From: a virus
Taxonomy: Duplodnaviria; Heunggongvirae; Uroviricota; Caudoviricetes
Reading direction: 5' to 3' (one strand)
IMG/VR virus record: IMGVR_UViG_2526164688_000041
DNA length: 12,518 nt
Below are positions 3,591 to 5,604 of the stretch, piece by piece. A program made the translations under genes and the position numbers. Below the pieces are notes generated by a model. It did not search any database. It had not been told where the DNA came from and worked only from the letters and a program-made list of their open reading frames with translations. Every line of letters starts with the position of its first letter. Within the stretch, counting starts at the first letter, position 1.

Positions 3591-4319
3591 TCACTCTCCT
3601 TTGATGCCAATGTTTACAGACTGGCAAGCCTCTTTGAGCACCCAGTCAACAGCGTCTTTCCATGCTCCGGTTTCGACTGGCGGATTCTCACGCTTTACCT
3701 GCTCATAAAAACGCACCGCTTTAATCAGTCCTTCAGGTACTACTGGCGATGGCTGTTTAGCTTCTAAATCAGCAATTCTGTCAACTACGGCATCTACTGC
3801 ATCTGAAAAACCGAACCAGTTACTCCACTCAGGCCTATCCCCGGTTGCTGCAAAATACATATCAGCTAAAGCAGACTCAGCATGGTCACGCTCGTTAATG
3901 AGTTGCTCTTCGCTTTTCTCCAGTTCAGCAATACGCTTCTCTGCGGCCTCTGCCCTGCATTGTTCCCGTTGGAACATTTTGTGGGTGCGGTCGAGCGCCT
4001 CAAGTCTAGCTGCTGATGTTTTCTCTTCTGCTTCAAGCTCAACGCGCAGCTTCCCAACCGTAAGCGCAATATCCTCGTTCTCCTGGTCGCGGCGTTTGAT
4101 GTATTGCTGGTTTCTTTCCCGTTCATCCAGTAGTGCCAGCACGGTTTCTGGTCCGGTCAGAAATTTGAAGGCATTGAGCGCATCAATATCCACACCGTAA
4201 TCTTTAAGTTCCTGTTCACTTAACAAATCATCATCAGCTGGCAACATTAACAGGCGTTCCATTGCTGGAATTGCACGTTCCGCCACCTCACGCAGTGCCT
4301 GGTAATTAATTTCGCTCAC
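3591..4319 (-). CDS. Ead/Ea22-like early protein (coiled-coil rich), paralog 1
   Basis: 242 aa. GTG start at 4319 overlaps the stop of the upstream paralog (GTGA). N-terminus (V/M)SEINYQALREVAERA is typical of Ead/Ea22-like lambdoid early proteins; central region is Ala/Glu/Leu-rich and predicted coiled-coil. Confidence 0.7.
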   Translation of the reverse strand: MSEINYQALREVAERAIPAMERLLMLPADDDLLSEQELKDYGVDIDALNAFKFLTGPETVLALLDERERNQQYIKRRDQENEDIALTVGKLRVELEAEEKTSAARLEALDRTHKMFQREQCRAEAAEKRIAELEKSEEQLINERDHAESALADMYFAATGDRPEWSNWFGFSDAVDAVVDRIADLEAKQPSPVVPEGLIKAVRFYEQVKRENPPVETGAWKDAVDWVLKEACQSVNIGIKGE

Positions 4320-4996
4320 TGGTTGCCTCCTTTGCGAAGCTGGGCAGCAAAGTCAACTAACCACTCAGTCATTTCAACCTTCCCTACCAGGTCTGAACCA
4401 GGGTACATACAGCAATCACTCTGCGCCGCTTTGAAATCCTTATACTCATATTCTTGGGCCACCAGATTTTTTGCAGCTTCTATAGCAGCATCCACCCCCT
4501 GCGCCCGGACTTCAGCCAGGAAAGCATCAGTGGTTGGCGTTTCAGGTATCTGTCTCCTCATCCGTTCTATTGCATGATTGAACCCGAAGTCTTCCGCGAG
4601 AGATACGTCATCCATATTGTCATTGTCATCCTCAATATCCCGTAATTCTGGAATTGCAGACTTTATTCCCGCATTCTCCGCTGCCAGCGCCGCGCACTTG
4701 GCTTCAAGAGCGGCAACCACTTCCTGATGGTCTTTGTACTTAACGTATGAGCCGGAGATGTCATCACCTTCGGTGTTTAGCCATGCGTCATTGCAATTCA
4801 CTGCGTAGGTTCTGATGCTGATGCTCTCCCGCCCCTGACAGACGCCAGGCCAGTCAATAAAGTATCCGCAATGCCTACCCTCAGACGTGCGCGCAGGATA
4901 AATGCCGTTATGACCCGGCAAAATATATGCTACCCATTCATCTTGCGTTGCCTGTTCCGCCGCCTCGCGCAGTTCTTGATAGTCAATCTTGCTCAC
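4316..4996 (-). CDS. Ead/Ea22-like early protein, paralog 2
   Basis: GTG start at 4996 is preceded by AAGGAGG and overlaps the upstream stop (GTGA), the same junction as paralog 1. N-terminus VSKIDYQELREAAEQA; C-terminus ..AAQLRKGGNQ. The ORF-track extension to ATG 5029 would overlap the upstream gene by 37 nt and is less likely. Confidence 0.7.
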   Translation of the reverse strand: MSKIDYQELREAAEQATQDEWVAYILPGHNGIYPARTSEGRHCGYFIDWPGVCQGRESISIRTYAVNCNDAWLNTEGDDISGSYVKYKDHQEVVAALEAKCAALAAENAGIKSAIPELRDIEDDNDNMDDVSLAEDFGFNHAIERMRRQIPETPTTDAFLAEVRAQGVDAAIEAAKNLVAQEYEYKDFKAAQSDCCMYPGSDLVGKVEMTEWLVDFAAQLRKGGNQ

Positions 4997-5604
4997 TGGT
5001 TGCCTCCTTTGCGAATCTGTTCCGCCCATTCTTCTAGGGATTTCTCCGCATATTCACCGGACAGGCCATCAATCGGGTGTGGTTCATTAGCCAACTCTTC
5101 TTTCGCTGACAGAATCATGCGTGTAACGTCGAAAACTTCACGTAAAGACTTATTGATAAATCCGTGATTGAAAGCAGCAGCAAGACGGCTTGCGGTATAG
5201 TTAATCCCCTCGTTGCGTGCTTCCGCACGAATTTCAGCCAGGAAAGCATCGGTGGCTGGAGTTTCGCTGTGGTGCAGGGCATCGTTGATAATCATTGCAG
5301 CAACACCAGCCTGCCCTGCATCCGTGACCGACACATGCTCAAGAGTTACGGCCATTGCGTGTTTCAGCCCCGCATTCTCCGCCGCCAGCGCCGAAAACTT
5401 CTCGTGTGCCAACTTAACAGCTGCTACAGCCTGCTTAATTGACTCAATCGCTTTCTGTTGGTCTTCGGACAGAGCCAAAATCTTGGCCTCCGCTTCAGCA
5501 AATTTACGCACCAGATATTCAGCATTTGTTTCATTCACTTTCAGATCTCGTGGTACACATTTCCCGCGAAGAAACCCTTCCATTTCGAAAACATTCATGC
5601 GCAT
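4993..5604 (-). CDS. Ead/Ea22-related protein, paralog 3 (shares central and C-terminal modules with paralog 2)
   Basis: 203 aa, ATG at 5604. Shares ..ALAAENAG(L/I)K.., ..ETP(A/T)TDAFLAE(I/V)RA.. and C-terminal ..Q(I/L)RKGGNQ with paralog 2, but has a different N-terminus. Confidence 0.6.
   Translation of the reverse strand: MRMNVFEMEGFLRGKCVPRDLKVNETNAEYLVRKFAEAEAKILALSEDQQKAIESIKQAVAAVKLAHEKFSALAAENAGLKHAMAVTLEHVSVTDAGQAGVAAMIINDALHHSETPATDAFLAEIRAEARNEGINYTASRLAAAFNHGFINKSLREVFDVTRMILSAKEELANEPHPIDGLSGEYAEKSLEEWAEQIRKGGNQ

Follow-up and report, generated by a model that had tools for sequence, protein, structure and literature searches.

Within the 12,518-nt stretch of Caudoviricetes DNA analysed here (the window), positions 3591-5604 hold three consecutive minus-strand open reading frames, named g3, g2 and g1 in operon order, with neighbouring frames overlapping by 4 nt (GTGA); an earlier note on this DNA had reported three tandem genes over the same interval, and all three are present. 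As judged from its sequence, the region belongs to the early-left operon of a temperate E. coli prophage resembling CPS-53/KpLE1, and its three accessory genes are translationally coupled. This leftward operon runs from the repressor through yfdP, yfdQ and yfdR to g3, g2 and g1, and then towards xis and int, with DUF551 and DUF4222 proteins also among the neighbours of the run. The exchangeable segment is bordered on its left-hand side by a fixed flank, yfdR (5595-6131, minus strand), which encodes an HD-domain 5'-deoxynucleotidase and whose stop overlaps the start of g3, and on its right-hand side by a second one, a downstream 171-aa gene (3074-3589, minus strand) for which coupling to g1 is predicted. 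Promoter and terminator scans gave no promoter- or terminator-like excess over shuffles inside the g3-g2-g1 run, and no RNA or structured element was found within it.

The gene g1 (3591-4319, minus strand; 242 aa) encodes a lambda-Ea22-like protein that matches PF13935 (Ead_Ea22) from residue 2 over profile positions 1-139 of 139, with a score of 105.2 bits for a curated gathering threshold of 27 bits. Its N-terminal motif, MSEINYQALREVAE, is followed by a long helix and then by a distinct C-terminal domain, likewise helical, that closes with IGIKGE. In the AF2 model, helices at residues 3-24 and 57-159 (pLDDT above 90) precede a helical domain at residues 168-236, which points to the three-part Ea22 build of an N-terminal segment, a long central coiled coil and a separate C-terminal domain. 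The earlier note had described all three genes as rich in coiled coils, and this is shown for g1 only, on account of its predicted 103-residue helix. In BLASTP, the N-terminal 104 residues of lambda Ea22 (NP_040612; PF13935) are 49% identical to g1 (E = 2e-28), the alignment being confined to g1 residues 1-137. The two proteins have in common the N-terminal motif MSEIN(Y/S)QALRE and the ending ...I(K)GE, for which ATCAAAGGAGAGTGA codes, and both genes lie upstream of xis-int in the leftward early operon and overlap the preceding gene by GTGA. They further share a 36-residue coiled-coil block (g1 residues 61-96; 4032-4139, minus strand), in which a single position sets g1 apart from lambda Ea22 residues 38-73 and LLDERERNQQYIKRRDQENEDIALTVGKLRVELE is identical; homology breakpoints pile up at both edges of this block, at 4020-4040 and 4140-4160. 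In contrast to lambda Ea22, g1 has about 20 extra residues past the N-terminal helix, and its C-terminal domain is unrelated to the solved lambda CTD, to which neither BLASTP nor a PDB sequence search detected homology; the PDB sequence search returned no solved-structure relative of g1 or of this domain either. Only the N-terminal half of g1 resembles lambda or Stx-phage Ea22.

The middle gene, g2 (4316-4996, minus strand), encodes an Ead/Ea22-family protein of 226 aa from a GTG start placed 6 nt past AAAGGAGG (an alternative mechanical ATG start at 5029 would give 237 aa). It matches PF13935 from residue 2 over profile positions 1-138 of 139 (98 bits, E = 9e-28), and its RefSeq entry, WP_000034252.1, is named 'ead/Ea22-like family protein'. 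The protein begins with the motif MSKIDYQELREAAE, followed by a non-helical N-domain, a short helix and modules termed A and T, and ends in ...AAQLRKGGNQ. With g1 it shares an N-terminus (13/32 identical, E = 4e-4), in line with the earlier note, and both belong to PF13935; g2 can be taken as a second Ea22-family variant, with a middle and a C-terminus unlike those of g1. Its single-sequence AlphaFold model, with a mean pLDDT of 46, is uninformative, and a PDB sequence search found no match among solved structures. A search of NCBIfam yielded nothing but noise far below threshold.

The first gene of the run, g3 (4993-5604, minus strand; 203 aa), is a chimera, in which a YfdS N-terminus is joined to C-terminal modules of the Ea22 type that recur in g2. 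From its start, it consists of the YfdS-type N-terminus, a helical segment, an A module ('ALAAENAGLK'), a T module ('ETPATDAFLAEIRA') and the end ...EQIRKGGNQ. The YfdS-like module (residues 1-45; 5470-5604, minus strand) is 40/45 (89%) identical in BLASTP to YfdS of strain DFK.1, phrog_583 matches residues 1-47, and a cluster of homology breakpoints lies at 5460-5510. The likeness to YfdS of the cryptic prophage CPS-53 (KpLE1) extends to its position directly after yfdR. Past residue 45, however, g3 differs from YfdS in carrying Ea22-type A, T and RKGGNQ modules; no YfdS similarity was detected there, and Pfam gave no match in g3 to DUF551, the domain at the C-terminus of YfdS (PMC10834534), so that g3 was rejected as a full-length YfdS family member. 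The C-terminal 135 and 127 residues of g3 and g2, respectively, are homologous (29% identity, E = 2e-9), which bears out the proposal that these two share a central block and a C-terminus; the Ead N-terminal motif is missing from g3, and no sequence shared between g1 and g3 was detected. Since g3 has no Pfam family at E <= 0.01, and thus no place in PF13935, the description of all three genes as Ead/Ea22-like is valid for g1 and g2 only. An annotated protein of phage Lys8385Vzw is 99.5% identical to g3, and PGAP annotates only a fragment of g3 in DEC5D.

The modules common to g2 and g3 are also repeats at the DNA level, all on the minus strand. The A module of g2 (..CAALAAENAGIK..; 4653-4699) is 77% identical to that of g3 (..FSALAAENAGLK..; 5354-5400), with a core matching at 24/25 positions (4668-4692 and 5369-5393), and breakpoints cluster at 5360-5400; the T module of g2 (ETPTTDAFLAEVRA; 4502-4543) is 86% identical to that of g3 (5224-5265), with an exact core of 18 nt (4511-4528 = 5233-5250), breakpoints at 5220-5280, and a T motif that turns up again in most upstream-gene types. 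The longest exact repeat in any mononucleotide shuffle was not above 14 nt. Internal repeats of 18-25 bp, as listed earlier, therefore exist, with coordinates displaced by 1-4 nt and a core of the A module that is 24/25 rather than identical; the shared segments are homologous modules and not a coincidence of low complexity. Such a disposition could arise by local tandem duplication within the prophage lineage, followed by divergence, the short identities being kept by gene conversion; the repeats are direct, 677-722 nt apart and ordered alike in g2 and g3, and the unit 'Ead N-terminus ... RKGGNQ' recurs. Nevertheless, this origin is very improbable, since the similarity is patchy, with identities of 18-25 nt amid about 29% protein identity and nothing in common between g1 and g3, and since each gene has far closer relatives in other phages, as in Lys8385Vzw for g3 and in lambda for the 36-aa block of g1. 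Triplets, moreover, are rare (6/245 chains) and their composition differs from locus to locus; a comparison of copy number and module order across related phages, which the earlier note had suggested, found both to vary widely.

The junctions J2 (g3 to g2; 4948-5036, minus strand) and J1 (g2 to g1; 4271-4359, minus strand) have the same type of architecture, which in J2 leads from the last 14 codons of g3, with an embedded putative SD, through the overlapping GTGA stop/start into codons 1-16 of g2. They are 78% identical over 89 nt and share an exact core of 25 nt (4314-4338 = 4991-5015); the near-identical junctions noted before at 4316-4343 and 4993-5020 agree at 26/28 positions, and their SD and GTGA are confirmed. 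The RKGGNQ codons (CGC AAA GGA GGC AAC CAG) contain the Shine-Dalgarno sequence AAAGGAGG, and the order AAAGGAGG-CAACCA-GTGA, with a 6-nt spacer before GTG, is found in both J1 and J2. Both therefore have the appearance of translationally coupled junctions, for which a strong SD 5-9 nt from a start that overlaps or abuts the upstream stop is expected, coupling and SD use being read from the nucleotide sequence. The junction 22-mer has two copies in the window and none in 200 shuffles. As a separate observation, the 15 nt at window positions 4705-4719 show 80% complementarity to each of the two junction SDs; anti-SD pairing by this segment was dropped as a candidate, such complementarity being judged to be at chance level.

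The third boundary, J0, between g1 and the 171-aa gene (3587-3605, minus strand; ATC AAA GGA GAG TGA T ATG), has a similar design, in which the terminal 'KGE' codons of g1 hold the SD of the following gene, giving AAAGGAG-AGTGAT-ATG after g1. Breakpoints cluster at 3580-3620, and J0 is a conserved island flanked by 13 sequence types upstream and 23 downstream, the ATCAAAGGAGAGTGA boundary occurring in 85 contexts and 49 combinations. Its 15-mer also ends lambda ea22; in lambda, the start after KGE is missing and the boundary is vestigial, and a single copy of ea22 stands in contrast to the run of three related genes in the window. The '+GE' tripeptide of Ea22 proteins has been listed in the literature as being of unknown significance; as a small new point, both this terminal motif and RKGGNQ may be explained as embedded ribosome-binding sites. 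In the proposed mechanism, the final codons of every gene would double as the ribosome-binding site of the next, with the stop overlapping or abutting the next start (GTGA, TGA-N-ATG), and a boundary of 20-25 nt would be frozen at the DNA level because of selection for translational coupling; at J1 and J2, the Ead N-terminal motif beside the core would lengthen the similarity to about 90 nt. The K-G-G-N-Q codons show a synonymous heterozygosity of 0-0.10, versus 0.50-0.68 for the conserved Ala-Ala codons immediately preceding them.

These boundaries are widespread among E. coli phages and prophages, and join genes of many kinds. The exact 22-mer is present in at least 120 IMG/VR contigs, with in-register identity falling from 1.0 at the core to about 0.3 within about 40 nt upstream and about 60 nt downstream. 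In-register average-linkage clustering of the 120-nt flanks resolved 29 upstream and 26 downstream types in 65 combinations, including 23 quartets with all four combinations, in a set in which most comparison loci were ascertained via the junction or g1, so that the combination counts are not an unbiased population sample; k-mer single-linkage clustering of the flanks was rejected, as it chained mosaic sequences into giant clusters. The RKGGNQ/GTGA boundary also joins non-Ead genes. Among 74 Ead-type ORFs that are relatives of g1, picked without reference to the junction, the start overlaps the upstream stop as G/ATGA in 72, AAAGGAGGCAACCAGTGA, exact or with a few bases changed, is present in about 55, and the C-termini are mostly IKGE or RKGGNQ. 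Of 5,426 complete E. coli genomes, 1,719 (about 32%) have a match to a 60-nt junction sequence, in up to 9 places each, and a scan of one genome per species with the exact 22-mer gave a single match, in Escherichia; at the level of exact sequence, the junction appears to be confined to this genus. Both the RKGGNQ and the IKGE boundaries are thus border sequences kept between unrelated flanks, as expected of conserved mosaic boundaries. In comparison with 200 loci, homology breakpoints fall only at boundaries and module edges, a histogram that demonstrates mosaicism and not by itself recombination within the blocks, since a high-identity match necessarily ends at the edge of a conserved block.

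Recombination within a boundary is evidenced by natural alleles on the same backbone. The TOE17 prophage retains g2, whereas RM10809-3 and OkiPb01681 are without exactly this gene, and g2 presence/absence is the one event class mapped to the base. In the RM10809-3 junction alignment, all informative sites pass from J2-like to J1-like across the 25-nt identical core, which places the crossover inside the J1 core; OkiPb01681 has the same pair of overlapping matches, as seen from match coordinates and not from a base-level alignment. The two sides of the junction in the g2-less prophages diverge from the window to different extents, 93.8% against 99.0-99.7%. In phage Lys8385Vzw, the segment between g3 and the same 171-aa gene is delimited by the same RKGGNQ and IKGE boundaries but holds other genes, first a non-Ead gene of 74 aa and then an Ea22 variant of 182 aa. 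Sister prophages carry, in turn, an internal deletion of g3 (window 5237-5492, 256 nt) with one edge in its T module and about 5 nt of overlap at the joint.

The boundaries may also have been conserved for function only (ribosome-binding site, stop/start and Ead N-terminal peptide), with illegitimate recombination occurring anywhere and selection keeping the joints at the borders, as in the Hendrix/Juhala view. The SD, the spacer and the start would account fully for the core, the joint of the g3 deletion looks illegitimate, and published summaries (PMC3029335) hold that boundary sequences are not findable at most phage mosaic joints. This explanation is nonetheless considered unlikely, because the crossover responsible for g2 presence/absence lies exactly within the 25-nt identity, there is hardly any variation in the spacer or at synonymous positions beyond the SD either, and the length of the joint never varies through dozens of flank combinations.

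The earlier note had seen in these genes a cassette system diversifying by homologous exchange, and the exchange is sustained by the g2-less alleles and Lys8385Vzw. A dedicated system is another matter: programmed cassette switching of the shufflon, integron or antigenic-variation type, with the junction as the specific site of a dedicated enzyme in one lineage, would be compatible with a highly conserved junction in many copies per genome and with the preservation of reading frame and coupling after exchange, but is highly unlikely in view of the remaining evidence. The repeats are direct, inverted pairs reach at most 20 nt with 75-93% complementarity and no pattern, the run contains no RNA or structured element, and the variation is between strains and not within an assembly. 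Neither the scanned neighbours nor the RefSeq annotations of the sister prophages include an invertase, an integron integrase or a reverse transcriptase, the prophage integrase being the sole recombinase. As far as these scans and annotations reach, the locus thus lacks the dedicated enzyme and the matching inverted repeats of a shufflon, invertible cassette, DGR or integron, and the pattern is one of population-level lambdoid mosaicism at short gene-boundary sequences, not of a dedicated cassette machine.

Taken together, the gene anatomy, the pattern across the population and the recombinant alleles whose crossovers lie within the core make it probable that these are coupled chimeric genes with boundaries frozen by coupling, and that homologous exchange takes place there as part of general lambdoid mosaicism. 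The frozen boundaries, common to many otherwise unrelated E. coli prophage genes, would provide short patches of homology, together with a few internal modules, and general or phage-encoded recombination would cross over at these patches, so that whole or half genes would be swapped, deleted or added with frame and coupling kept. As to the acting recombinase, Red-beta, with a reported minimal pairing length of 23-27 bp, would suit a core of 25 nt better than RecA, for which 31-34 bp is reported (PMC3945230). Relaxed recombination by Rad52-like phage recombinases would be a candidate mechanism, being able to use short or diverged homology (Martinsohn 2008, PMC2327257; De Paepe 2014, PMC3945230); no Red-beta/RecT/Erf-type recombinase was found in the window, where the operon and neighbouring genes were scanned, and the host or co-resident prophages would therefore have to supply the enzyme. 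It is unlikely that the RKGGNQ/GTGA and IKGE/TGA-N-ATG boundaries are, beyond this, selected 'universal adaptors' of 20-25 nt, tuned to the pairing length of a Rad52-like recombinase; if so, accessory genes would be pluggable, removable and swappable in frame with their ribosome-binding site, in an integron-like, homology-based exchange of host-takeover or anti-defence genes.

Several features of the run have counterparts among genes already described. In Stx phages and EHEC prophages, the Ea22 variants V1-V3 agree in their N-terminal segment and coiled coil, and their C-terminal domains are exchangeable and unrelated (PMC10834534, PMC7093339), Stx2 phages contain relatives of g2 and g3, and ea22 genes have already been termed 'mosaic' and their terminal basic-Gly-Glu tripeptide reported (Goddard et al. 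2024, PMC10834534; Dydecka et al. 2020, PMC7093339); unlike in those papers, the terminal motif and RKGGNQ are read here as the putative embedded SD of the next gene. Short boundary ('linker') sequences belong to the modular theory of lambdoid phage evolution, as outlined in PMC3029335, and the present boundaries resemble that model in their short border sequence, unrelated flanks and internal crossovers. They go beyond it in being partly coding, in their evident primary function, which would be translational coupling, and in their unusual recurrence, in about a third of complete E. coli genomes. On the basis of homology with lambda Ea22, g1, g2 and g3 would encode oligomeric pro-lysogenic early proteins with exchangeable head domains, a function that we infer entirely from published work on lambda and Stx-phage Ea22, in which experiments established the tetramer and the lysogeny bias (PMC10834534, PMC7093339).

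In summary, the locus is a clean example of ordinary phage mosaicism and no new kind of system, mosaic ea22 genes having been published before. Some practical consequences concern annotation: these proteins are chimeras, so that names such as 'ead/Ea22-like' or 'Eae protein' cover only part of each of them, and intact chimeras such as g3 can be mis-called pseudogene fragments. The '+GE' tripeptide receives a simple explanation, its codons probably forming the ribosome-binding site for the gene that follows. Finally, the g3-g2-g1 run offers a well-resolved natural case for a debated idea, namely that phage mosaics arise through homologous exchange at short gene-boundary sequences.

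The genes g3 (5604-4993, 203 aa), g2 (4996-4316, 226 aa) and g1 (4319-3591, 242 aa) are read in succession on the minus strand, from 5604 down to 3591; g2 and g1 start with GTG, and successive genes share a 4-nt overlap, GTGA. The stop of yfdR overlaps the start of g3, and a 171-aa gene (3589-3074, minus) begins with an ATG one base after g1; in the window and in phage Lys8385Vzw this last gene is intact, and in the annotations of DEC5D, TOE17, RM10809-3, OkiPb01681 and JB2 it is a pseudogene with a frameshift. The order repressor, yfdP, yfdQ, yfdR, g3, g2, g1, ..., xis, int marks the prophage as a CPS-53/KpLE1-like temperate element, with the triplet in the leftward early operon, and the scan found no promoter-like or terminator-like excess within the g3-g2-g1 run. 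Prophages of three E. coli strains (7_33_46A, F2_407_2_2 and DEC9B) match the window at 99.9-100% identity, each match being in two pieces with an IS3 family transposase annotated under each. At the integrase end of the window (1-339, plus, and 387-1673, minus), the host flank is the start of a fimbrial-usher-like ORF; mlrA adjoins the otherwise similar prophages of TOE17, RM10809-3 and JB2. Elsewhere in the window, Rfam gathering-level matches to the isrK Hfq-binding RNA (10185-10261, plus, 62 bits) and to C4 antisense RNA (10283-10370, plus, 75 bits) both lie within a long, mechanically called ORF (9825-10970) annotated in its C-terminal part as a Rha family regulator, and 10185-10370 resembles an RNA module of the P1/P7 C4 or Gifsy isrK type ahead of an antirepressor-like gene.

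The near-identity of the two junctions, claimed in the earlier note, is borne out: the g2/g1 junction J1 (4271-4359) and the g3/g2 junction J2 (4948-5036) are 78% identical over 89 nt and share a 25-nt exact core, GCTCACTGGTTGCCTCCTTTGCGAA (4314-4338 and 4991-5015), the 22-mer being present in two copies in the window and in none of 200 shuffles. Read in the coding direction, the core is CGC AAA GGA GGC AAC CAG TGA, with GTG overlapping the stop, and therefore the final R-K-G-G-N-Q codons of the upstream protein also spell the Shine-Dalgarno (SD) sequence of the next gene, a near-perfect AAAGGAGG located 6 nt before its GTG. The same logic holds at the end of g1 (ATC AAA GGA GAG TGA T ATG), whose terminal 15-mer is identical to that of lambda ea22. 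Ea22 proteins have been reported to end, without exception, in a basic-Gly-Glu tripeptide 'of unknown significance' (Dydecka et al., PMC7093339), and this ending is most simply explained if its codons form the ribosome-binding site of the next gene. Lambda ea22 (NC_001416, 1030-1050, minus) ends in the same ATCAAAGGAGAGTGA boundary; the following ATG, present in nearly all other phages, is missing there (GAGTGAGATCGG...), while locus L052 has the ATG and then sequence rejoining that of lambda, and for these reasons the lambda 'KGE' boundary looks like the vestige of a lost downstream gene start. Within g2, a 15-nt stretch (4705-4719) is 80% complementary to the SD-containing cores at 4320-4334 and 4997-5011 (inverted repeats I5/I6); in theory, pairing in the mRNA could hide the ribosome-binding sites, but the complementarity is short and probably due to chance.

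At the protein level, not all three genes are Ead/Ea22-like as had been proposed: g1 and g2 exceed the threshold of Pfam Ead_Ea22 (PF13935) by a wide margin, but g3 has no Pfam family match, and over residues 1-45 it shows 89% identity to YfdS, the product of the usual gene after yfdR. The patchwork of shared ends stands, with g1 and g2 aligning at their N-termini (E = 4e-4) and g2 and g3 over 127 and 135 residues of their C-terminal parts (E = 2e-9); no similarity is shared by g1 and g3. The coiled-coil-rich character is established for g1 only, where AlphaFold gives one confident 103-residue helix, the g2 model being unusable. The first 104 residues of lambda Ea22 resemble the N-terminal 137 of g1, including a 36-residue block with a single difference, whereas the C-terminal domains are unrelated. 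In strain DEC5D, g3 (7597-8205 of its locus) is annotated by RefSeq/PGAP only as a 135-nt pseudogene fragment, leaving about 470 nt unannotated, although its sequence is 100% identical to the intact 203-aa ORF of the window; the pseudogene call is probably an annotation artefact due to the chimeric make-up of g3. The 99.5% identical g3 protein of phage Lys8385Vzw is annotated as 'Eae protein'. Positions 1-199 of the 378-position PHROG profile phrog_14548 match g3 and positions 200-276 the N-terminus of g1, a pattern suggesting that in some database entries a g3-like gene is fused to, or read through into, the Ead gene after it.

Both internal repeats described earlier are real, with their coordinates corrected by 1-4 nt: an 18-nt exact repeat (4511-4528 and 5233-5250) and one matching at 24 of 25 positions (4668-4692 and 5369-5393).

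Among sister prophages of the same backbone, the differences fall exactly in the g3-g2-g1 region: TOE17 has g2 and a shorter g3, and RM10809-3 and OkiPb01681 are precisely devoid of g2. In RM10809-3, the one event mapped to the base, all informative sites are J2-like upstream and J1-like downstream of the core, which places the crossover within the 25 identical bases; in the prophages devoid of g2, divergence from the window is unequal across the junction (93.8% identity on one side versus 99.0-99.7% on the other). Phage Lys8385Vzw carries yfdR, g3 (99.5% identity), a 74-aa non-Ead gene, a 182-aa Ea22 variant and the same 171-aa gene, an order in which other genes have taken the place of the middle ones between the RKGGNQ and IKGE boundaries. 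Across 200 loci, the end points of high-identity matches to the window are confined to the three boundaries, the A and T modules (internal blocks common to the C-terminal parts of g2 and g3), the borders of the coil block resembling that of lambda, and the point where the YfdS segment stops, although match ends coincide by necessity with the edges of conserved blocks. The 116-aa version of g3 in TOE17, RM10809-3 and OkiPb01681 is devoid of a 256-nt segment (5237-5492, minus) comprising the coil and the A module; the joint shows an overlap of only about 5 nt, and for this reason the deletion is apparently an illegitimate or micro-homology event, unlike the boundary exchanges.

The exact 22-mer occurs in at least 120 IMG/VR viral contigs; with these in register, pairwise identity averages 1.0 in the core and drops to about 0.3, the random level, within some 40 nt on the upstream and 60 nt on the downstream side. 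The 120-nt flanks of the junction-found loci comprise 29 upstream and 26 downstream types in 65 combinations (n = 109), with all four combinations seen in 23 quartets of flank types, counts that are biased in that the comparison loci came via the junction or via g1. The IKGE boundary, between g1 and the 171-aa gene, behaves in the same way (85 contexts, 13 x 23 flank types, 49 combinations). Non-Ead flanks are also found at the junction, for example an upstream protein ending in ...NKYLNAMWRKGGNQ and several unrelated types of gene downstream. In a second set of loci, collected by similarity to g1 and independent of the junction, 72 of 74 Ead-type ORFs have a (G/A)TGA start overlapping the upstream stop, about 55 of the 74 show the AAAGGAGGCAACCAGTGA form or a variant a few bases off, and most end in IKGE or RKGGNQ. 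In upstream genes ending in KGGNQ, these five codons are nearly invariant synonymously (heterozygosity 0-0.10), whereas the conserved Ala-Ala codons slightly further upstream are free to vary (0.50-0.68), and therefore the conservation acts at the DNA level.

Matches to the 60-nt junction sequence are found in 1,719 of 5,426 complete E. coli genomes, with a maximum of 9 places per genome, and in 412 places on plasmids; among species representatives, a single other one, an Escherichia sp., had the exact 22-mer. Ea22-like runs are likewise present on plasmids: P1-like phage-plasmid records encode a g2 relative (63% identity), and plasmid pNJS001-1 (NZ_CP114131) has three ead/Ea22-like genes, one of them a pseudogene, with DUF4752 and other genes in between. 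Module order and copy number, whose comparison across relatives had been proposed, vary widely in a motif-based census (for the window, ATR / NWATR / NCQK); such genes commonly stand singly or in pairs, and runs of three are rare (6/245).

The observation in the earlier note is thus confirmed and its interpretation, a cassette system diversifying by homologous exchange, partly supported: homologous exchange at conserved junctions is supported, as in RM10809-3, but the region is an instance of ordinary lambdoid phage mosaicism and not of a dedicated cassette device, since the repeats are in direct orientation, the prophage integrase is the sole recombinase among the neighbouring genes scanned and the sister-prophage annotations, and the boundary also serves non-Ead genes. 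The minimal pairing length is 23-27 bp for Red-beta and 31-34 bp for RecA (PMC3945230); the 25-nt core lies within the former range and below the latter, which would fit exchange by phage recombinases supplied in trans. Genes of the ea22 type have already been described as mosaic, with interchangeable C-terminal domains (PMC10834534), and short conserved boundary sequences have been proposed as one route to mosaicism, usually not found (PMC3029335). By homology to the Ea22 proteins of lambda and Stx phages, g1, and perhaps g2, may be early, oligomeric proteins biasing towards lysogeny, with swappable end domains. Translational coupling and SD use at the junctions are predicted from sequence, and reading the +GE and RKGGNQ termini as embedded ribosome-binding sites and boundary sequences would bring a small explanatory gain; the triplet is a new, tidy example of an already known phage mosaicism.
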